Shown here piece by piece: positions 14,348 through 23,295 of a stretch of 32,000 nucleotides of DNA. Origin of the DNA: Clostridium amylolyticum (GTDB lineage Bacteria; Bacillota; Clostridia; Clostridiales; Clostridiaceae). A program made the translations under genes and the position numbers. Each line of letters begins with the position of its first letter. Position 1 is the first letter of the stretch. The notes below the pieces were generated by a model that made no database searches, had not been told where the DNA came from, and saw only the letters and a program-made list of their open reading frames with translations. The stretch lies in contig NZ_FQZO01000004.1 of assembly GCF_900142075.1 (NCBI RefSeq), forward strand, positions 150,868 to 182,867, written 5' to 3'.

Positions 14348-16339
14348 CTAACTTAAAATTTGACTTTCATGCTTTTTAAAGAAATCCACACGGGGTTCTA
14401 AATATTTTAGTTTATGGGTAGATTTATCTTCCATAAATGTATAAATTGGTTCAAATATATAATCCCATCTCCAAAGCTTCTCATTTACATTTAGATATTC
14501 CCTTACCATTTCACAGCTATCTGGTGCAATAGGATGTATTAAAGTAATAGCAGTTCTTACCGCATGAAATGCATCTATTAAGACTTGCTTACGAAGAGTA
14601 TTATCTTCACTAGCCTCAGCAGCTTTCATGTTATTTGCCCAATATTTATTCATTTTACGAATGTAATCATCCAAAACATAAGTAACACTATGAAATTCGT
14701 GGTTATACATGTGTCTTTCATAGCTTAAAATAGCATCATTGGATTCTTCTATAATATTAGCGCTAATTTCGCCTTCTGGTATGTTACCATCAAAATATTT
14801 CTGTGCGGTATAAAAGCAAGAACGAAGAAGTCTGTTAAATACATTAGTAAGCAAATTACCATCCTTTAAAACCGTATCTGGTCCTTGTTTCTCTTCTTCT
14901 TTCATATAAACCTGAGGCATGAAGCTGACACTTTTCTTAGCCAGTCCAAGACTTAGGAAATGCATACGCAATTGCTCTGCTGTGTAATATTCTAATAACT
15001 CTTTTGCCATAGGAGGTTTAATATCACTGCTGCTGCTTGCCTTTTTATCCATAAACAGTACATGGTTATTGGCGATCAACTGTGGAAGAGATATATTTTC
15101 AAAGTTTACTTTATCCTCGCTATTAATACCTAATAAAGCCATGAACAATGCCATCTCTGCAATACCATAGAAGTATATATTATCTTCCCCAATAAATTGA
15201 TAAACCTTTGAATCCTTAGAATTCCAAAACTCTTTCCACTCACTAGAGTCCTTTCCAATGGATTCAAGATACGCTTTGGTAAAGGAAATAGGCGCCCAAA
15301 GAGATTCAGGCCAAACCCAAAAGGTTAGATTTTCAAGATTTTCCTTTTCAGGAACTTCTATTCCCCATTCCACATTTCCTGATAGCCTAAAAGGCACCAA
15401 TGTCTTACCAGTTCTAAAGCGTATGCCAAGCTCATCTAATACCTTTCTAGCCTCATCTCTATTCTTTAGACTTTCAAATACATAAGAAATAGAAGCTTTC
15501 TTTGGATCATCTATGATGGTATGCTTAGGTAATTTATCTTCTAAATCTGTGATACCTTCTAATTGCTTACGTTTTACATATATAATTGGAGACTTCAAGA
15601 ATTCTTCAATGGTATTTAATAAATATTTTCTCCAATTTGAATGGGTTTTTAAATACTCTACTTTTTCTTTCAAAATATCATTATACTCATCCAGTTTAAA
15701 ATACCAGTTTGTAACATCCCTCAATTCAGGTGTTTTACCCGACAAAATGCTCTTTGGCTCAATTAATTCCATTGGCATATACTGATGTCCTAAAGCACAC
15801 TCATCCGCATAAGCCTTATCTGAATTACACCCCTCTATAGGACATTTACCAATCACTTGTCTGCCGTTTAACAGTACTTTAAAATCAGGATCGTAAAACT
15901 GTGGTGATGACAGCTTAAGTAAATATCCACCTTCATATAGTTTATTAAATATTTCTTTTGATAATTCTTTATGGATTTCACCAGCTCTATCTAATGCAGA
16001 AGCCCCATATAAATTTAAACTCATTTCATATTTATCTAATACTTCTTTTTGCTTATGATGATTTCCACGAACATAATCTTCTATGGTACCTTCATACTTA
16101 TGTTCATCTACAAGCTTTCTATAGCTTGCTGAAATGGGTGAACCATAGCAGTCTGTTCCAGATACAAATATAACATTTTCCCCGCCGATTCTATCCCGTA
16201 AAAACCTTGCAAAGGTATCCGCATGTACAAAAACCCCGCCTACATGTCCAAAATGCAATTCTTTATTGCCATAGGGCATACCTGCAGTTATAACAGCTTT
16301 CTTAGGAAATATAGGTCTTTCTATTTTTCTCTCTTCCAT
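14348..16339 (-). CDS. Class I aminoacyl-tRNA synthetase of the MetRS family, divergent paralogue
   Basis: 663-aa ORF. The HIGH motif reads HFGH. The CP-domain knuckle and following segment, [41 protein letters not shown], aligns with E. coli MetRS [48 protein letters not shown] aligns with FIGKDIVYFH. The KMSKS position reads KASSS. An anticodon-binding helical domain is present, but no C-terminal EMAP/Trbp111 domain. SD AAGGAG lies 8 nt upstream. Confidence 0.8.
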   Translation of the reverse strand: [663 protein letters not shown]

Positions 16340-16611: not shown

Positions 16612-16885
16612 TATAAAAAAACACCTCCTACAATATTCTGTAGGGGCGAATTCTGTCGCGGTACCACCCTATTTCATCAGCATGTCACCATACTAACCTT
16701 GTCGAGTACAAAGTATACTCTAGTTCTGTAACGTGAACCAACGTCATAGTATCACTTATCCCTTAGAATAAGATCCGTATGCAGCTCCGAGCCTTGTTTC
16801 GTTAAATCTTCCACCGCTCCCTCTCACCCACAGGAACTCTCTGTAAATATCCAAAATAACTACTCTTCTCTTCATTGCCTTTATT
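16612..16885 (-). promoter_or_regulatory. T-box riboswitch leader (Stem I, Stem II, IIA/B, III, antiterminator/terminator)
   Basis: The minus-sense leader contains these elements:
- GA/K-turn GCAAUGA...GAGC
- AGAGUA and GAA S-turn halves
- AG bulge CAGAGAG
- Distal GGGUGAGAG
- F-box CGUUA
- T-box sequence AAAUAGGGUGGUACCGCG (16657-16674)
- Antiterminator AGGG/CCCU + GCG/CGC
- Competing terminator CCCCUACA-GAAUAU-UGUAGGAGG followed by UGUUUUUUUAU (16613-16648). Confidence 0.9.
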
Positions 16886-16995: not shown

Positions 16996-17036
16996 CGGAA
17001 AAAATGGCTTAACTATTTCAGTATAAGCCATTTTAA
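16996..17036 (-). terminator. Rho-independent terminator of the GTPase-NYN gene (bidirectional shape)
   Basis: In the minus sense: AATGGCTTA-13 nt-TAAGCCATT followed by TTTTCC. It lies ~260 nt downstream of the stop at 17296. Confidence 0.7.
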
Positions 17037-17077
17037 TTATTTTATATCATTAAAACATCTTTATCCTAAGAAAAAGC

Positions 17078-17181
17078 AAAATCAAGTGATTCTTAGCTTC
17101 GGAGGTCGTTTCCTTAAAAGGAATACTTACTCCAGCTGAAGCTTAGAAGAACTTATCCAGGAGCTTAGTTCCCCTTATTCC
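17078..17181 (-). repeat. Dispersed structured repeat, copy B (3' UTR of the GTPase-NYN gene)
   Basis: Arms aagtgattcttagcttc (17084-17100) and gaagcttagaagaactt (17138-17154) surround GGAG/CTCC and an inner ttcc-ttaaaa-ggaa hairpin. An additional upstream (minus-sense) direct copy of the ATAAG..CTAAGCT unit is present. GATTTTGCTTTTTCTT follows in the minus sense. Confidence 0.6.
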
Positions 17182-17295
17182 ACTACTTAAAGAAATGGGC
17201 GTATTATGGGCGGTTAGCTATGGGATAAATTATAATTAATTTTTTTAATTAAATAAATATGTACTAATATTTTAATGCTTAACCTTAGGATCCAG

Positions 17296-19962
17296 CTACT
17301 TTTTCTGAGGTTTCACTGTGGCCTTAATTATCTCCTCCATTTGCTGCTTTGAAGCTTGAGGTATTGTATCTCCGAGATAATTCTTATTAATTTCCTGCAT
17401 CTTCTGATTTTCCTGCCTTATCCTCTCATTGGTTTCTTCAATCTCAACCTTCAATTCTCTGGCGGATAATAACAAGCATCCTTGCCCCCGAACGATTATT
17501 TGCTGCAAACCATCTGAGGTTGCTACAGATATATTATATTTTTTATTATTGTCATAGGCAAACCTTTCAATGTACTGGTCTGCTGTTTGTGCCTCTCTGG
17601 TATATACCAGGTGAATATTATGATAATCCATTGTACCTTCACCATGCCCCTGAACACGATAGGCATCAAACACAAGGATAATTTTACATTTTCGAACACC
17701 TTGATAATTACTCAAGATATCCATCAATTTCATTCTGGCACCTTCCATATTTTCATCTGCAAGCTCTTTCAATTCTGGCCATGCATGGATAATGTTATAA
17801 CCATCCACAAGAAGATACTCTTCTTTCATTGTTCTTTCTACGCTGGTATTCACTTGGTTAACAGGTTTATAATAGCTTTCACCTGCTGTTTTATGTGTTT
17901 TCCAGACAGATTTCTTTCCCTGATTTGTATAGAAGGTTTTATTGATAATCTCATCAATCTCTTCAGTACTAATAAAGCGTTCTTCCGTATATACTCCTTG
18001 ATTTTTGGATGTTTCTTCCCATAAATCTTCTTTTTCCTGAAAATAGCTTTCTAAATGCATATATTCCTTCACTTCGTCCCATTCAACAATAAAACCTGCA
18101 CCTTGTGCGCAAAATACTGAACTAGTGGGATTGTTAGTGTCTCTATCCGGATCATATCCTATGCTCTCTATGAGCTCATGATCATTATGGCAGGGTTCAT
18201 AGCCTTTTAGACTACAAAACAACCTACCCTTACCTTTGGTATAGGCAACTACCTCTTTCTGATAATTCCTCATGCCGCTTACAGGGGCCTTCCCCACAAG
18301 AACTGCCATTTCACCATCAGAATGAGATATTTCGCAAGTTCCATTGATTTTGTCTATATCGGTCATAGCTCTTCCTACCATTTTCTCAGGCAATTCCAGT
18401 TGGAAAGAATAGTATGGCTCCAATAAAACGGATTGTGCCTCCATTAAGCCCTGGCGCACCGCACGCCAGGTTGCCTCTCTGAAGTCGCCACCTTCGGTAT
18501 GCTTATGGTGTGCTTTACCAGAGACTAAAGTAATTCTCATATCCGTAATCTCTGAACCTGTTAAAACTCCTTTATGAGTCTTTTCCTCAAGATGATGTAA
18601 AACAAGCCTTTGCCAACTCTTACCAAGGATATCCTCACTGCATTTGCTTTCAAACACCAGACCACTTCCTGGTTCCCCTGGCTCCAATAGAAGGTGTACC
18701 TCTGCATAATGCCGCAACGGTTCGAAATGCCCTACTCCCTCAACAATATTAGCAATTGTTTCTTTATATACAATGCCTCCCGTATCTAAGGCCACCTTAA
18801 TGCCAAAACGGTTTTCTATTAGACTCTGTAAAATTTCAATTTGAACTTCTCCCATTATACGAACCTGAATTTCCTGTAGCTGTTCATCCCAAACAATATG
18901 AAGCTCTGGCTCCTCTTCTTCAATCTGACGCAGCTTTGGAAGCATGGCTCTTGGATCACAGCCTTCTGGAAGTATCATCTGGTAGGAAAGTACAGGCTCA
19001 AGAATGGAAGTATATGAAGCTTTCTCTATACCCAAGCCTTCTCCAGGTCTAGCCTTGCTGATTCCTGCCACTGCACACACGGAGCCTGCTCCTATCTCAT
19101 TCACTGCTTCAAACTTCTCTCCTGAATAGATGCGAATCTGATTTACCTTCCCTTCCCAGTGATCATTGGTTAAAATATCCTTTACCTTCAGCTTTCCACC
19201 TGTAACCTTCAGGTGTGTAAGGCGATTTCCCTGATCATCTCTTGTTATTTTAAATACTTTAGCTCCAAATACATCGGGATAGGAAGGTATGGTTACATAA
19301 TGGGCAATACAATGCATCAACTCATCAATACCTTCCAATTTTAAGGCTGACCCAAAAATGCACGGAAATACCCTTCTCTCCTTAACAGCTTTTTTTATTT
19401 CAAGGGTTTCAATATGTCCTGTTTCCAGAAAGGTTTCCAGCATGCTTTCATGGCACATAGCCAGTTGCTCATAAAAACTCTCTGTTTTCACCTGCCCAAA
19501 TTCAATACATCCATCACTGAACTGCTTTTTCAGTTCTTTCATTAAATTGTCCTTATCCGTTCCACTCTGATCCATCTTATTCACAAATATAAAAACAGGA
19601 ATGTTATAAAGGTCTAAGAGTCGCCATAAGGTCTTTGTATGACCTTGCACTCCATCTGCGCCACTGATAACCAAAATGGCATAATCCAGTACCTTCAGTG
19701 TCCTCTCCATTTCAGCTGAAAAATCCACATGCCCCGGGGTATCCAACAAAGTAATCTGAATTCCACCGGTTTCAAATACAGCCTGCTTTGAGAAAATCGT
19801 AATGCCTCTTGCCTTCTCCAGCTGGTAGGTATCTAAATATGCATCCTTATTATCAACCCTTCCCAGTTTTCCAATTTTACCACTCATATAAAGCAAACCC
19901 TCTGATAAGGTCGTCTTGCCCGCATCAACATGTGCCAATATCCCAATTACTACTTTCTTCAT
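17296..19962 (-). CDS. Fusion protein: Tet(M)/Tet(O)/EF-G-like translational GTPase (aa 1-~640) + YacP/Rae1-type NYN endoribonuclease domain (aa ~714-835)
   Basis: One uninterrupted 888-codon ORF.
- GTPase motifs: G1 AHVDAGKT (aa 10-17), G2 RGITI, G3 DTPGH (74-78), G4 NKMD (128-131).
- The rest of the N-terminal part is colinear with Tet(M) through SLKGYEP (~aa 585-590).
- The C-terminal segment EEYLLVDGYNIIHAWPELKEL...KIILVFDAY...TREAQTADQYIE...SVATSDGLQQIIVRGQGCLLLSARELKVEIEE aligns along its length with B. subtilis YacP (Rae1). Confidence 0.85.
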   Translation of the reverse strand: MKKVVIGILAHVDAGKTTLSEGLLYMSGKIGKLGRVDNKDAYLDTYQLEKARGITIFSKQAVFETGGIQITLLDTPGHVDFSAEMERTLKVLDYAILVISGADGVQGHTKTLWRLLDLYNIPVFIFVNKMDQSGTDKDNLMKELKKQFSDGCIEFGQVKTESFYEQLAMCHESMLETFLETGHIETLEIKKAVKERRVFPCIFGSALKLEGIDELMHCIAHYVTIPSYPDVFGAKVFKITRDDQGNRLTHLKVTGGKLKVKDILTNDHWEGKVNQIRIYSGEKFEAVNEIGAGSVCAVAGISKARPGEGLGIEKASYTSILEPVLSYQMILPEGCDPRAMLPKLRQIEEEEPELHIVWDEQLQEIQVRIMGEVQIEILQSLIENRFGIKVALDTGGIVYKETIANIVEGVGHFEPLRHYAEVHLLLEPGEPGSGLVFESKCSEDILGKSWQRLVLHHLEEKTHKGVLTGSEITDMRITLVSGKAHHKHTEGGDFREATWRAVRQGLMEAQSVLLEPYYSFQLELPEKMVGRAMTDIDKINGTCEISHSDGEMAVLVGKAPVSGMRNYQKEVVAYTKGKGRLFCSLKGYEPCHNDHELIESIGYDPDRDTNNPTSSVFCAQGAGFIVEWDEVKEYMHLESYFQEKEDLWEETSKNQGVYTEERFISTEEIDEIINKTFYTNQGKKSVWKTHKTAGESYYKPVNQVNTSVERTMKEEYLLVDGYNIIHAWPELKELADENMEGARMKLMDILSNYQGVRKCKIILVFDAYRVQGHGEGTMDYHNIHLVYTREAQTADQYIERFAYDNNKKYNISVATSDGLQQIIVRGQGCLLLSARELKVEIEETNERIRQENQKMQEINKNYLGDTIPQASKQQMEEIIKATVKPQKK

Positions 19963-20149
19963 CTTTATATCAAATCCTTTGTTTTTCTACTGCCTTGTAT
20001 GCCTATGCTCTAAATAATCTAAAAGTAAAATTATAGTTCTTCAAAACTACATTGCCTATATGTATTTAGCATTATATTGTCCAAAAGTATACCTGATTTA
20101 TTTATAATTCTAGTATAGCAAACATAACTATTAAATTTAAAGTTATATG

Positions 20150-20335
20150 CTAATATGTCTCCTCATTACATCTTTGTATTATATCTTTTATTTCTAATGT
20201 AGTGAATTTACTATCTCTTAATAAAACAATTTTTTGAAGCACTGGTATCTGTTCTTCAGAATACATTCTATATCCTCTAAATAAATCGACCTTTACAGGT
20301 TTTAATAATCCAATCTTATAATAGGCTTGTGTCAA
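20150..20335 (-). pseudogene. MerR-family regulator remnant (5'-truncated; wing and start of the dimerisation helix only)
   Basis: (T)QAYYKIGLLKPVKVDLFRGYRMYSEEQIPVLQKIVLLRDSKFTTLEIKDII matches the TLRYYDxIGLLxP...GYRxYxxxQLxxLxxIxxLRxxGFSLxEIK core. The N-terminal HTH helices are missing. The track start is a TTG with a stop 8 codons upstream in frame. The sequence upstream of 20336 is unrelated and ends the neighbouring higher-GC insert. Confidence 0.6.
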
Positions 20336-20371
20336 GCAATAGACTAAACTTTTTTAAACACCTTGCAAATA

Positions 20372-20410
20372 CGCCAAAAACCCAACAATAAACTGTTTAA
20401 TGTTGGGTTT
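20372..20410 (-). terminator. Rho-independent terminator after the PNPOx-like gene
   Basis: In the minus sense: AAACCCAACA-13 nt-TGTTGGGTTT followed by TTGGCG (T-run of 5 including the stem end). Confidence 0.65.
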
Positions 20411-20494
20411 CAGAAAACTAAGTTAGAAAATATTGATAATCAAGTAGTGGTGTTTTTTGGCTCTCAAGTTAGAAAGTGCTTATTCCTTACGGAT

Positions 20495-20971
20495 TTATTT
20501 CGCCGTTTTATTGATAAAGTCAATTTCATACTGACGTTCACCGTATTTTTTTTCGTTGTCAGTAATAATACCCTCTGTGAGGTTGATACGCAGAACGATT
20601 GAGTTCGGATTGTCTTCGTCACCAACTTCATCGAACCAGTTGAAGATTTTTTTAAATTTCGCTCTGATTTCCGCATTCTTCTCGTCCTTGACCCAACCTA
20701 GATTTTCAGCCGTGCCATGGAAAGCGTACCAATCTAACCCAGCCACGGAAACCTCGTTGTTCTTCTCAATTTCCAGCATTTTATTTTTTTGAGCGTCTGT
20801 AGAAACATAAAATACACCCTCTTCATAATAAGCGCAAACCATACGGACAGCAGGGCGGGGATTACCCTCAGTGTTTGGGGATAGTGATATTGTCGCAAGT
20901 GAAATAACTTCTTCTTTACCATTTCCACAACGTTCCTCCATAAGTTTCATGGCGTTTTCGTATTTGCTCAT
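20495..20971 (-). CDS. Pyridoxamine 5'-phosphate oxidase-like FMN-binding split-barrel family protein
   Basis: 158-aa ORF. Its pattern (...PRPAVRMVCAYYEEGVFYVSTDAQKNKMLEIEKNNEVSV...) is typical of the small PNPOx/general-stress-26-like family. SD AAGGAG is upstream. Its GC content is visibly higher than the surrounding sequence. Confidence 0.6.
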   Translation of the reverse strand: MSKYENAMKLMEERCGNGKEEVISLATISLSPNTEGNPRPAVRMVCAYYEEGVFYVSTDAQKNKMLEIEKNNEVSVAGLDWYAFHGTAENLGWVKDEKNAEIRAKFKKIFNWFDEVGDEDNPNSIVLRINLTEGIITDNEKKYGERQYEIDFINKTAK

Positions 20972-21047
20972 TTCAAATTTCTCCTTTTTTAAATTTATTT
21001 TTTCATGCTGTAACTATAACCAAACCACTTGAAACGCGGCTCAAAAT

Positions 21048-21665
21048 TTACAATTCAAGCTTTAGCCACAAAGCGGGACGGACGCCGCCTGTACATTTGC
21101 CATCGCTGATGTTGCCTTTCAATATATTGTTGCCTTGAATACCTATATTACCGTCAGTGCCAAAGATGTACACGGCTTTTACATTAACGCGGCCGGGCGA
21201 CCGAAGCCACCACCACCAAGCCCATTCTTTACCCAGAAGTTTTGCTATTCGCTTACTATTGTTTTCATCTTTTCTTTCAAACCAATATCTTTGATTTTTT
21301 CCTCGGTTTTGCAGTTTTGCACGGCTATCACCGAAATATTTGCACACTTCCTCAATGCTTAATAAAAATATACTGTCTTGCGTATCTGCTCCGCCATTTG
21401 AACCATACCACTGGTTGTCAGGATTTTTATTTAACACCGGAATTATTCTTGATTTATCAGTTTCGTTGAATTTATCATAAAATTCACCATTAAGATATTT
21501 TCTTAACGCGCAGTCAGCCCATGTTATATCTTTATAAGCATCATGGTAAGAACGTTGTTCTATAATATCTTCGGTTATAATTAAAGCCGTATTGTTTTGT
21601 ATGTCAAGCACACGCCAATTATAGACACTGAATGATAATGATGAGTGGATTTTAATATCTTCCAT
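21048..21665 (-). CDS. DUF6273 domain-containing protein
   Basis: The hallmark pattern is present: WRVLD...ALIITEDII...ITWADCALRKYLNGEFYDKF...IFLLSIEEV...WWWLRSPG...GVRPALWLKL. Confidence 0.75.
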   Translation of the reverse strand: MEDIKIHSSLSFSVYNWRVLDIQNNTALIITEDIIEQRSYHDAYKDITWADCALRKYLNGEFYDKFNETDKSRIIPVLNKNPDNQWYGSNGGADTQDSIFLLSIEEVCKYFGDSRAKLQNRGKNQRYWFERKDENNSKRIAKLLGKEWAWWWWLRSPGRVNVKAVYIFGTDGNIGIQGNNILKGNISDGKCTGGVRPALWLKLEL

Positions 21666-21719
21666 TTAACCACTTCTTTCTTTGTAATAGGTAATCTTCC
21701 TTCTCCTTCGAACTTATTC

Positions 21720-21980
21720 TTAACCCTTCTCCTTAGTCGGAAACAATAAATCAAGCTGTAAATCTTCCATTTTACCGCCTTTTTGTACAAAATTATAAAA
21801 ATTCAACGTTTTTTCAAACCCTTGTCCCACAACAGTTTCCGGCGATGTTCAATGTGGGGAATCCCAGTCATTATCATATTTATCGCTTGCGTTAACCCAT
21901 TCTTTTAATAAACGCCAATCCTGGAAATCCCATGTCCTCAACACATGTGCTACATATAACCCGACGTCAAAAGTTTGCAT
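21720..21980 (-). pseudogene. Hypothetical gene interrupted by an in-frame TGA (43 codons + 42 codons)
   Basis: The ATG at 21980 has SD GAGGAG 7 nt upstream. The product is MQTFDVGLYVAHVLRTWDFQDWRLLKEWVNASDKYDNDWDSPH, followed by TGA (21851-21849). The same frame then stays open for 42 more codons (TSPETVVGQGFEKTLNFYNFVQKGGKMEDLQLDLLFPTKEKG) to the TAA at 21722-21720. It is below the ORF-track size cut-off. Confidence 0.35.
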
Positions 21981-22000
21981 TAATTCACTCCTCATTTTTG

Positions 22001-22444
22001 TTACTGTACTTTACTGTATACCATAGGGATATATCGTATCTCGTTTGTTTTTTCTTCGGGAGCAATGTCGACAAAACCTAATCGGTGATACACCTCAACT
22101 GCATAAGGCGACGAATTCACTGTGATTTCTTTTGCGGTGCTGTTTTCTAATACAATCTGAAAGAGCTTTTTTCCTATTCCCTGTCTATGGTGCTTGCCAT
22201 CCACAAAGAATAGAGCGATATGGTTCCCCTTATTTCTCGTTGCAATTACTCCTAAAAGGGTTTCACTTTCATAAGCGCCATACATATTCAAGCTATCTAA
22301 AAAATCGTTATTATAGATTGTCGTGCGCTTGAAAGTCTCCACACCTTCCACGGAATAATCAGGCGCTTCAAACTGCATAAATACAGCCGAAACTAATTGA
22401 ATGGCGGTATCTCTTTGATTTCTATCTATCTTTTTAATTTCCAA
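22001..22444 (-). CDS. GNAT family N-acetyltransferase
   Basis: 147-aa ORF with acetyl-CoA binding motif A, HRQGIGKKLF. The TTG start has SD GGGAGG 7 nt upstream. Confidence 0.8.
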   Translation of the reverse strand: MEIKKIDRNQRDTAIQLVSAVFMQFEAPDYSVEGVETFKRTTIYNNDFLDSLNMYGAYESETLLGVIATRNKGNHIALFFVDGKHHRQGIGKKLFQIVLENSTAKEITVNSSPYAVEVYHRLGFVDIAPEEKTNEIRYIPMVYSKVQ

Positions 22445-22704
22445 TACAATACCTCCCTGCAGATGCAGATTAGATACTAGGCGCTGCTATTCATTTGTAA
22501 ACAGTACAATTAACAAAGTAATACCCATAAAAATCTTCTTCGTCCGTTATGTTTATGGTTTTATTTTAGTTTGGCTTTCACTCAAACACAAGGACATTGC
22601 CCATGTTGCGTTTTTGGGGAGTAAATTGTATGATTACTCTCATTACCGCCTGCAAGAGAAATTGGAATTTTGTCAGCTTAATATATTGCTTATTTTGAAA
22701 AGTA

Positions 22705-23295
22705 CTACTTTAACCGCTTCCTCATGACAAGCCCTTGTTCAGTCTCAAAAGACACATTAAATCCACTTTTTTTATACATCTCAAAATGGCCGCCAAAATC
22801 TGATGATTGATAATTAGATTCTTTGTATGGGTATGCCTCCACGAAGTCAAATCCATCCTGGACCGCATCCTTACACACACGCTCCAATAGCAGTGTGGCA
22901 ATGCCTTTTCTTTTCATCTCCGGCGCAATCACGAAACAAAATATGGATTTCACCTTTATGCCCGTGTTAGATTCCTCTAAAGGTACATAATCCATAAATC
23001 TTCGCCAACTAGCGCATTTCAAGCAATCTGATTTCGTATTTGCGTTGCACCATCCAACGACCGTATCACCACTATAAACAAGATAACCTTGAATGTTATT
23101 GCCTTTAACATATTGTAAGGCACATTCTCTTCTTTTTTCTACTGTTGAAAGATCTTTGCCCTCATAATCATCGTTACACCAACACACACAATAACATTTA
23201 TGCTCGTCCACATTGTTATCGTGTGGAGTAGTGTCAAAAAAATGCACGTAATCTTCTGCAAGCTTTGGTATTAACTTGCGTATCTCAATATCCAT
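22705..23295 (-). CDS. GNAT family N-acetyltransferase (Cys-rich N-terminal variant)
   Basis: 196-aa ORF with motif A, MKRKGIATLLLERV, and a CYCVCWC segment seen in one GNAT subfamily. Its GC content is higher than the flanks. Confidence 0.75.
   Translation of the reverse strand: MDIEIRKLIPKLAEDYVHFFDTTPHDNNVDEHKCYCVCWCNDDYEGKDLSTVEKRRECALQYVKGNNIQGYLVYSGDTVVGWCNANTKSDCLKCASWRRFMDYVPLEESNTGIKVKSIFCFVIAPEMKRKGIATLLLERVCKDAVQDGFDFVEAYPYKESNYQSSDFGGHFEMYKKSGFNVSFETEQGLVMRKRLK

Follow-up and report, generated by a model that had tools for sequence, protein, structure and literature searches.

A Rae1-type endoribonuclease joined to an EF-G/Tet-like GTPase in Clostridia, a candidate factor for mRNA cleavage at stalled ribosomes

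Rae1 (YacP) of Bacillus subtilis is an endoribonuclease whose activity depends on translating ribosomes (PMC12407103, PMC10351889, PMC13622287), and a question still to be answered in bacterial ribosome quality control is how it recognizes stalled or collided ribosomes. The original model had Rae1 dock in the A site (PMC10351889), whereas more recent data map its sites 12 nt upstream of the A-site codon of the stalled ribosome, at the trailing edge, and indicate that cleavage may require collided ribosomes (PMC12407103). In addition, Rae1 hands collided ribosomes over to transfer-messenger RNA (tmRNA) and is required for tmRNA tagging after collisions (PMC13622287). A 2025 paper in Nucleic Acids Research states that structural work on Rae1 is in progress, and a 2026 preprint defines a Rae1-tmRNA (CART) pathway without a recruitment mechanism. 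YacP usually occurs as a stand-alone protein; it was first predicted to act in rRNA or tRNA maturation, and its canonical operon also holds mrnC and an rRNA methyltransferase gene (PMC5499597). A joined form has been described as well: Atkinson 2015 (BMC Genomics) found Tet-like proteins with a YacP-like NYN domain in ten Clostridiales species and proposed rRNA RNase activity for them (PMC4342817), and Matelska et al. 2017 (Nucleic Acids Research) noted 'TetM-NYN_YacP fusion proteins' in 'some Clostridia' (PMC5499597). Here we analyze one such fusion, encoded by a single gene in a 32,000-nucleotide stretch of the Clostridium amylolyticum genome (assembly GCF_900142075.1, contig NZ_FQZO01000004.1, positions 150,868 to 182,867), which we call the window. 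An original prediction made for this DNA stated that no characterized member of the architecture was known. We likewise found no experimental work on a GTPase-NYN fusion in the literature, and the fusion goes unmentioned in two recent papers on Rae1 (PMC12407103, PMC13622287), but the architecture itself has been in print since 2015 and 2017. The same prediction took A-site cutting by Rae1 as its premise, which the mapping of sites 12 nt upstream of the A-site codon has since made dated (PMC12407103).

The gene lies on the minus strand and its product can be divided into a five-domain GTPase, a family-specific segment following domain V (the post-V segment), a linker and a nuclease domain:

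17296..19962, minus strand: whole gene, an 888-aa translational GTPase-NYN fusion (open reading frame (ORF) listing and translation, Pfam, NCBIfam)
19294..19962, minus strand: G domain, aa 1-223 (PF00009, 176.6 bits; the Pfam span of GTP_EFTU is aa 4-223)
19054..19263, minus strand: domain II, aa 234-303 (PF22042 EF-G_D2, 31.6 bits against a cut-off of 27; confident in the AlphaFold2 (AF2) model)
18787..18996, minus strand: domain III, aa 323-392 (PF14492 EFG_III, 28.2 bits against a cut-off of 27)
18433..18774, minus strand: domain IV, aa 397-510 (PF03764 EFG_IV, 69.2 bits)
18181..18429, minus strand: domain V, aa 512-594 (PF00679 EFG_C, 63.5 bits)
17998..18180, minus strand: post-V segment, aa 595-655 (conserved in fused relatives and in 117/117 unfused Lactobacillaceae proteins)
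17821..17997, minus strand: flexible linker, aa 656-714 (low AF2 confidence, length variation, substitution rates)
17326..17820, minus strand: Rae1/YacP-type NYN endoribonuclease domain, aa 715-879 (PF05991, 188.6 bits)

Translation starts at an ATG, and the sole stop codon (17296-17298) stands at the end of the frame; an open frame of 888 codons in DNA of 33% G+C cannot, we infer, be of chance origin. The prediction that one uninterrupted 888-codon frame joins a GTPase of the EF-G/Tet lineage to a YacP/Rae1 NYN nuclease is borne out by the ORF listing and translation, by Pfam and NCBIfam profiles and by structure-sequence alignments. A hidden Markov model scan, proposed at the time as a check, placed GTP_EFTU, EF-G domains II-V and NYN_YacP all above their Pfam cut-offs. 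The protein thus holds a Tet-like GTPase and NYN_YacP in one polypeptide of a clostridial species, as in the family of Atkinson and Matelska, and an orthologue with 95% identity is found in two syntenic loci (L001 and L002).

In the nuclease half, the NYN_YacP profile matches aa 717-879 over positions 1-165 of 166 (cut-off 24.6 bits). The domain aligns with residues 3-142 of B. subtilis Rae1 (5MQ8/5MQ9) with 43% identity over 140 aa (E = 2e-26), in agreement with the colinearity that had been claimed. Three acidic active-site positions had been expected, and all of these are kept, although the alignment raises their number to four: D720 (VDGYN), D766 (VFDA), D795 (TAD) and D817 (TSD). By residue alignment D720 and D795 are the counterparts of Rae1 D7 and D81, the two positions altered in the catalytic double mutant D7N D81N (PMC10351889). 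Conservation across orthologues, raised earlier as a possible point of failure, is high, with D720 kept in 141/144 relatives, D766 in 145/150, D795 in 142/144 and D817 in 146/150. A stand-alone yacP/rae1 gene was found neither in the 32-kb window nor in any related locus retrieved.

In the GTPase half, the sequence holds the motifs G1 AHVDAGKT (aa 10-17), G2 RGITI (52-56), G3 DTPGH (74-78), G4 NKMD (128-131) and G5 GSALK (204-208). Across divergent relatives the key residues hardly vary (P-loop K16 in 144/144, G3 D74 in 144/144, catalytic H78 in 143/144, G4 D131 in 144/144), and with G1-G5, the catalytic histidine after DxxG and the five-domain body the protein falls within the EF-G/EF2 family. 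The original prediction had delimited a complete GTPase at aa 1 to about 640; its G1-G4 motifs are indeed present, but the module extends to aa 655 by way of the post-V segment. With their catalytic residues intact, both halves of the fusion are predicted to be catalytically competent.

The affinity of this GTPase within the family is less straightforward than its earlier label, Tet(M)-like, suggested, and we consider that label overstated. The best curated NCBIfam model is the tet_protect equivalog, yet the protein reaches 433.5 bits against a cut-off of 775; it likewise stays below the cut-offs of the TetM/W/O/S model (296 against 1100 bits) and of the EF-G equivalog TIGR00484 (287.2 against 659.4 bits). 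Domain IV is the best-conserved region of the whole fusion protein in alignments of its relatives. It bears the clade's loop motifs GHFEPLRHYAEVH (aa 411-423) and AHHKHTEGGDFR (aa 484-495), its loop III has the consensus AHxKHTEGGDFR in the fused clade, and H488 is kept in 142/144 relatives. In the residue alignment, GKAHHKHTEGG of loop III stands opposite GLYYSPVSTP of Tet(O) (4v6v) and Tet(M) (3j25/3j9y); in an EF-G homologue this stretch reads GSYHEVDSS. Tet proteins dislodge tetracycline through their domain IV loops (PMC4342817). Because the Tet cut-offs are missed and the Tet loop III motif is replaced, a function of the fusion protein in tetracycline resistance appears unlikely, and the strong clade-specific signature of domain IV would fit a conserved contact with the ribosome.

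Otherwise the GTPase resembles Tet(M) and Tet(O) in domain order, in length and in having no full G' insertion, and these two are its best sequence matches in the PDB, colinear over aa 1-591 with about 30% identity. It differs from them in its other, longer C-terminal extension, which the nuclease then follows, and in being encoded by a chromosomal, lineage-wide gene and not a mobile one. With EF-G and archaeal EF2 it shares all GTPase motifs, the five-domain body and the top structural matches, and its loop III histidine aligns with a loop histidine of EF-G; however, identity to them is only 22-25%, the full G' subdomain is absent, and loops I and III are its own. We conclude that the GTPase is a subfamily of its own, nearest to the ribosomal protection proteins and belonging neither to those nor to EF-G, and that the fusion protein is not the organism's translocase.

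A survey of the distribution, also suggested with the original prediction, shows a family of considerable size. The 120 best protein clusters (74-95% identity to the query) all carry the same six Pfam domains, and a search of 1.84 billion cluster representatives listed 150 matches, 144 of them full-length fusions with 41-61% identity. A genome scan with the clade-specific domain IV motifs as query, using one genome per GTDB species, gave confirmed motif matches to the GTPase clade in at least 597 species; locus-level counts were taken from the best 80 of these. The NYN domain follows in the same frame in 78 of the 79 GTPase ORFs at these loci, the single non-fused case being an ORF cut at a contig end, and the fusion is apparently obligate within the clade. 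Nearly all of the best 80 loci are from Clostridia. Two (L074 and L079) are from metagenome-assembled genomes (MAGs) with other labels, Prevotella sp. and uncultured Bacteroides sp., for which binning contamination is the likely cause and lateral transfer a possible one. Carriers include Desulfosporosinus, Desulfitobacterium, Anaerovorax, Oscillospiraceae, Acetivibrio thermocellum and Pseudoclostridium thermosuccinogenes as well as the Lachnospiraceae genera Dorea, Blautia, Roseburia, Mediterraneibacter, Anaerostipes and Agathobacter. The closest named genome among the matches listed is that of Clostridium punense, and identity to the query is 77% for Desulfosporosinus and about 60% for Lachnospiraceae. 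When compared with three orthologues, the ratio of non-synonymous to synonymous substitution rates (dN/dS) was 0.09-0.10 for the GTPase body, 0.07-0.10 for the NYN domain and 0.13-0.35 for the linker. Both halves are under purifying selection, and the linker is as well.

Long members of the family were considered as carriers of alternative effector domains, and this was rejected, the extra length being just insertions and longer linkers. One of them (P0205) has an insertion in the G domain, and in another (P0271, 1040 aa, ENA) EFG_IV and EFG_C each matched in two stretches, which points to domains IV-V being duplicated within the protein or else to an assembly error. The full fusion was found by tblastn on two large replicons only, among 72,556 plasmids. 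Two GenBank records from human faecal samples entitled 'UNVERIFIED: Bacteriophage sp.' (MT835563.1, our L089, and MT835514.1) hold the fusion gene. Because its neighbours there encode a prolyl-tRNA synthetase, DapF, an aldose epimerase and an enolase-superfamily enzyme, MT835563.1 is best read as a misfiled fragment of a bacterial chromosome; carriage by phages was rejected, both records being bacterial fragments, and a viral fold library returned generic GTPases only. In databases the family appears as translation factor GTPase family protein, NYN domain-containing protein, elongation factor G, small GTP-binding protein, TetM/TetW/TetO/TetS protection protein or 'Tetracycline resistance protein TetM from transposon Tn916'.

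The plasmid search also led to a nuclease-free relative. Megaplasmids of Ligilactobacillus salivarius encode an unfused protein about 49% identical to the query over aa 1-641, an example being the 'translation factor GTPase family protein' WP_324177469.1, and a homology search seeded with the L. salivarius protein recovered a family of 640-660 aa, none of whose members matches PF05991. Its members come from Ligilactobacillus, Companilactobacillus, Levilactobacillus, Paucilactobacillus and Pediococcus, with many copies on chromosome-size contigs. In common with the fusion they have the post-V segment, the motif GH[FY]EPL[RK]H[YF] in loop I and the core H[ST]xGGDF in loop III; their loop III reads ASNVHSVGGDFR, and the loop I and post-V motifs are kept in all 117 full-length unfused members. 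They differ in ending about 31 residues past the SVFC motif, where the tether of the query starts, and in having no NYN domain, and in the four contexts inspected no NYN gene lies beside the unfused gene. Since the unfused form ends where the tether begins, the GTPase and post-V segment can be regarded as an autonomous module to which the nuclease was appended in Clostridia. On one 248-kb L. salivarius megaplasmid (NZ_CP117984.1; L088 4402-6920) the unfused gene is oriented divergently from a paralogue of rpsN (ribosomal protein S14) and from the gene of a 'putative metal homeostasis protein', with insertion sequence elements on the flanks; these neighbours might point to alternative ribosomal proteins or zinc limitation, or might be coincidental.

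The post-V segment has the family-specific consensus GY..CHN..YDP..D..NP..SVFC.HGAG..VPW.EV..MH and, together with the linker, has no sequence relatives in the PDB. An AF2 model built from a divergent alignment reached a mean predicted local distance difference test score (pLDDT) of 89 and a predicted template modelling score (pTM) of 0.71, and an earlier attempt on a shallow alignment of 37 sequences, 74-95% identical, was discarded (pLDDT 44, pTM 0.28). The model shows five EF-G-type domains, a folded post-V segment (pLDDT about 91-94 to about aa 640), a disordered tether and an NYN fold at aa 715-858 followed by a C-terminal helical tail. It matches EF-G/EF2 structures with E of about 1e-52, and its best global superposition is on archaeal EF2 (6u43; template modelling scores 0.57/0.69 over 750 aligned columns). 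Confidence falls below 50 at aa 656-665 and 678-710, on either side of a short, semi-conserved helix (aa 666-677), so that the flexible part is about aa 656-714 or some 59 residues and not the linker of about 70 aa originally proposed. In relatives, between 61 and 193 residues correspond to query aa 637-716, with many E, K and R among them; by this variable length and composition, the linker behaves as a flexible tether. In EF-G, residues past domain V pack back on domain IV. If this packing holds here, the tether would emerge close to the face of the factor that points to the decoding centre. A rough polymer estimate gives a disordered chain of 59 residues a typical reach of about 50-60 Å and a maximum of about 200 Å, which should suffice for the entry-channel region.

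We propose, with a probability of roughly one half, that the fusion works by GTP-gated docking, which brings its tethered Rae1 nuclease to ribosomes that have stalled or collided. Observed parts of this proposal are the domain architecture, catalytic residues intact in both halves, the fusion linkage, purifying selection, the flexible tether, the self-contained gene and the lack of Tet hallmarks. Ribosome binding, an mRNA substrate, a stalled or collided ribosome as trigger and the connection to rescue are what it would add to them. By homology, the GTP form would dock at the GTPase-associated centre, the factor-binding site, with domain IV inserted toward the decoding centre, and the charged tether of about 59 residues would carry the Rae1-type NYN endoribonuclease. 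Since the A site has no room for domain IV and the NYN domain at once, the nuclease would most plausibly cut mRNA just outside the docked ribosome, either on the entry side or between the stalled ribosome and one that has collided with it from behind. Recent Rae1 data put cleavage there as well (PMC12407103). The product would be a truncated mRNA, to be cleared by tmRNA or other rescue systems, and the net role would be that of stand-alone Rae1 with a built-in, GTP-gated module for delivery and sensing.

Several points weigh against this proposal. Ribosome binding, GTP hydrolysis and RNA cleavage by the fusion are predictions from its sequence. With domain IV in the A site the nuclease would be excluded from it, so that the cut must fall elsewhere, and the substrate could be rRNA or tRNA rather than mRNA. 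Moreover, the unfused Lactobacillaceae protein shows that the GTPase has some function independent of the nuclease.

A broader and more tentative idea, which we think less probable than the docking proposal itself, treats the fusion as a Rosetta stone. The whole EF-G-like subfamily, free in Lactobacillaceae and tethered to a nuclease in Clostridia, may be a GTP-gated sensor of translocation-blocked ribosomes, such as one trailing in a collision or one whose A site is idle. In Clostridia, the time that the factor spends there might then license the tethered Rae1 domain to cut adjacent exposed mRNA. If so, the fusion would be a single-polypeptide bacterial counterpart of no-go decay assisted by a translational GTPase, and free Rae1 in other Firmicutes would reach ribosomes by way of that same site or with the help of a comparable factor.

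The surroundings of the gene bear on the proposal and on its rivals. Three further features flank the coding region:

19963..20149, minus strand: 5' intergenic region with ribosome-binding site AAAGGA and a probable promoter (sequence reading, upstream-region alignment)
20150..20335, minus strand: remnant of a MerR-family regulator, N-terminal fragment (PF13411 MerR_1, 31.4 bits, profile positions 19-68 of 69)
16999..17032, minus strand: intrinsic terminator hairpin AATGGCTTA...TAAGCCATT followed by TTTTTT (sequence, RNA fold)

A probable promoter has its -10 element TATAAT at 20071-20076, which aligns with the TTGTCA-N17-TATCAT promoters of relatives. The leader holds no terminator-like hairpin, and neither leader nor 3' region has an Rfam match even at E <= 1; a regulatory RNA or attenuator in either was rejected on these scans. 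The leader contains a start-stop ORF (AGGCA ATG TAG, about 20035-20050, minus strand) that is conserved in the 95%-identical locus L001 only and not in Desulfosporosinus or Pseudoclostridium. The terminator that the gene was said to own is present, but about 265 nt past the stop codon, where the transcript would end, and not directly after it; a consensus terminator scan missed the hairpin because its loop is 12 nt. The 260-nt untranslated stretch in between (17035-17295, minus strand) folds markedly better than shuffled controls (z = -4.4), and a 53-aa ORF is called in its counterpart in L001. Just downstream of the terminator lie a T-box leader (RF00230, 96 bits, 16639-16884, minus strand) and, beyond it, the gene of a 663-aa methionyl-tRNA synthetase (14348-16339, minus strand).

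On the 5' side, the destroyed MerR gene noted originally is indeed there, as the Pfam fragment listed above. The remnant, probably nonfunctional and part of the history of the locus, matches an intact MerR/TipA-like gene (L011 127-876, E = 5e-7) that lies 205 nt upstream of the fusion orthologue in a MAG. MerR linkage occurs in about one of 74 loci (intact in L011) and is also seen in decayed form in L001, where the remnant is accompanied by an extra insertion of about 235 nt with a duplicated stretch. A conserved operon partner or helix-turn-helix regulator, hinted at by Matelska, was rejected, neighbours being unrelated across 74 loci: the largest homologous neighbour group comprises 4 of 66 upstream and 2 of 71 downstream genes. 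In A. thermocellum the fusion gene sits between a divergent and a convergent gene; for the expression of this copy, a text match lists two different 'small GTP-binding proteins', not mappable to the fusion orthologue. Since neighbours differ in this way among relatives, the reading of the gene as monocistronic and self-contained holds, and the lack of a conserved neighbour argues that the protein is self-sufficient. PADLOC defence-system models gave no match, and the 66 upstream and 71 downstream neighbours include no conserved antitoxin or sensor partner. Five successive minus-strand genes at 17296-23295, namely the fusion gene, a PNPOx-like gene, DUF6273, a GNAT acetyltransferase and a 196-aa ORF, have a G+C content at third codon positions (GC3) of 0.35-0.42, against 0.22-0.28 in the other 16 genes of the window. 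This block of about 6 kb looks like DNA of foreign origin, consistent with the fusion being closer to that of Desulfosporosinus (77%) than to those of Lachnospiraceae (about 60%).

The strongest rival, to which we give about one chance in five, changes the substrate. The GTPase would again dock on the ribosome or a subunit, and the NYN domain would cut rRNA or a bound tRNA, for example near the decoding centre, at the 16S 3' end or at the sarcin-ricin loop, in the service of ribosome maturation, quality control, inactivation or stress turnover. Atkinson 2015 proposed rRNA RNase activity for these fusions (PMC4342817), and the early maturation prediction for YacP, with mrnC and an rRNA methyltransferase gene in its operon, points the same way (PMC5499597). 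A tether anchored by domain IV or V would put rRNA at least as close as mRNA, and the unfused GTPase points to a ribosome-related role independent of mRNA cleavage. On the other hand, all experiments on Rae1 concern translation- and frame-dependent cleavage of mRNA (PMC12407103, PMC10351889), and the neighbourhood has no link to ribosome biogenesis.

Considerably less probable is the reading behind many database names, that the fusion is an antibiotic ribosomal protection protein, directed at tetracyclines or another agent of the A site or GTPase centre, with the nuclease as a second activity for resistance or clean-up. It draws on tet_protect as top curated model, on Tet(O)/Tet(M) as top PDB sequence matches, on the TetM/TetW/TetO/TetS names given to relatives in many sources and on the ties of Rae1 to antibiotic responses through bmrCD, chloramphenicol and erythromycin. 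The MerR/TipA-type regulators, often antibiotic-sensing, upstream in L011 and as a remnant in the window would also suit it, but such linkage is found at one of about 74 loci. The scores of 433.5 against 775 and 296 against 1100 bits and the replaced Tet loop III speak against it, as does a gene that is chromosomal in hundreds of species, in variable context, and on two replicons among the 72,556 plasmids, where true tet genes are plentiful.

We regard as improbable a toxin that targets translation, or an anti-phage abortive-infection effector, in which the nuclease, docked in a GTP-gated way, would shut translation down once triggered. Ribosome-dependent mRNA nucleases of the RelE type are classic toxins, and the gene lies inside the block of atypical codon composition. 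PIN-like and NYN domains do occur in defence systems, as in a paper on a CRISPR-associated NYN protein. The toxin or defence role raised in the original prediction nonetheless finds no PADLOC match, no conserved adjacent antitoxin, immunity or sensor gene, and no association with phages, small plasmids or other mobile elements, and the broad, slow-evolving and largely lineage-wide conservation is that of housekeeping factors. Finally, that adjacent GTPase and yacP genes were joined by a sequencing error, an idea resting solely on stand-alone YacP being the usual form, is refuted by the continuous ORF in 78/79 independent genomes and in hundreds of independently sourced protein clusters and by purifying selection on the linker.

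With its nuclease hard-wired to a predicted factor-site GTPase, the fusion offers a natural experiment on where and when cutting takes place, and we regard the family as a good lead to how bacteria cut mRNA on stalled ribosomes. It is present in abundant human gut genera (Anaerostipes, Blautia, Dorea, Roseburia, Agathobacter and Mediterraneibacter) and in a genetically tractable carrier, Acetivibrio thermocellum. The Tet names on its members, unsupported here, could inflate resistome counts in gut metagenomes. The architecture is already known, in print and in databases under inconsistent names. Our contribution is to show how large the family is (at least 597 species) and that the fusion is apparently obligate, to describe the signatures of domain IV and of the post-V segment, to give evidence against the Tet label, to identify a sister group in Lactobacillaceae that has no nuclease, and to tie the family to the view of Rae1 as a nuclease of stalled or collided ribosomes.

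Compared with described systems, the gene is an orthologue of the fusion family of Atkinson and Matelska, with the same architecture in the same taxonomic group and no difference in kind; those reports are one-paragraph mentions without experiments. The fusion covers the full NYN_YacP profile and has all four acidic residues in common with Rae1. Rae1, however, has only about 170-180 aa and exists on its own, its gene belonging to a gltX-cysS-mrnC-yacO-yacP operon (PMC5499597), whereas here the NYN domain is the C-terminus of an 888-aa protein whose gene stands in variable context, with neighbours such as those for methionyl-tRNA synthetase and a PNPOx-like protein. The fusion also carries an attached module for the factor site, dedicated to that purpose by prediction. 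In its proposed logic, a nuclease recruited to stalled or collided ribosomes, it is similar to SmrB of E. coli and to Cue2/NONU-1; SmrB and Cue2 have been summarized as collision nucleases (PMC12407103). These enzymes have the SMR fold, which is unrelated to NYN. The eukaryotic rescue pair Hbs1-Dom34, for its part, is assisted by a translational GTPase. None of SmrB, Cue2/NONU-1 and Hbs1-Dom34 joins a translational GTPase and a nuclease in a single polypeptide, as the clostridial fusion does, and the analogy with them is functional only.

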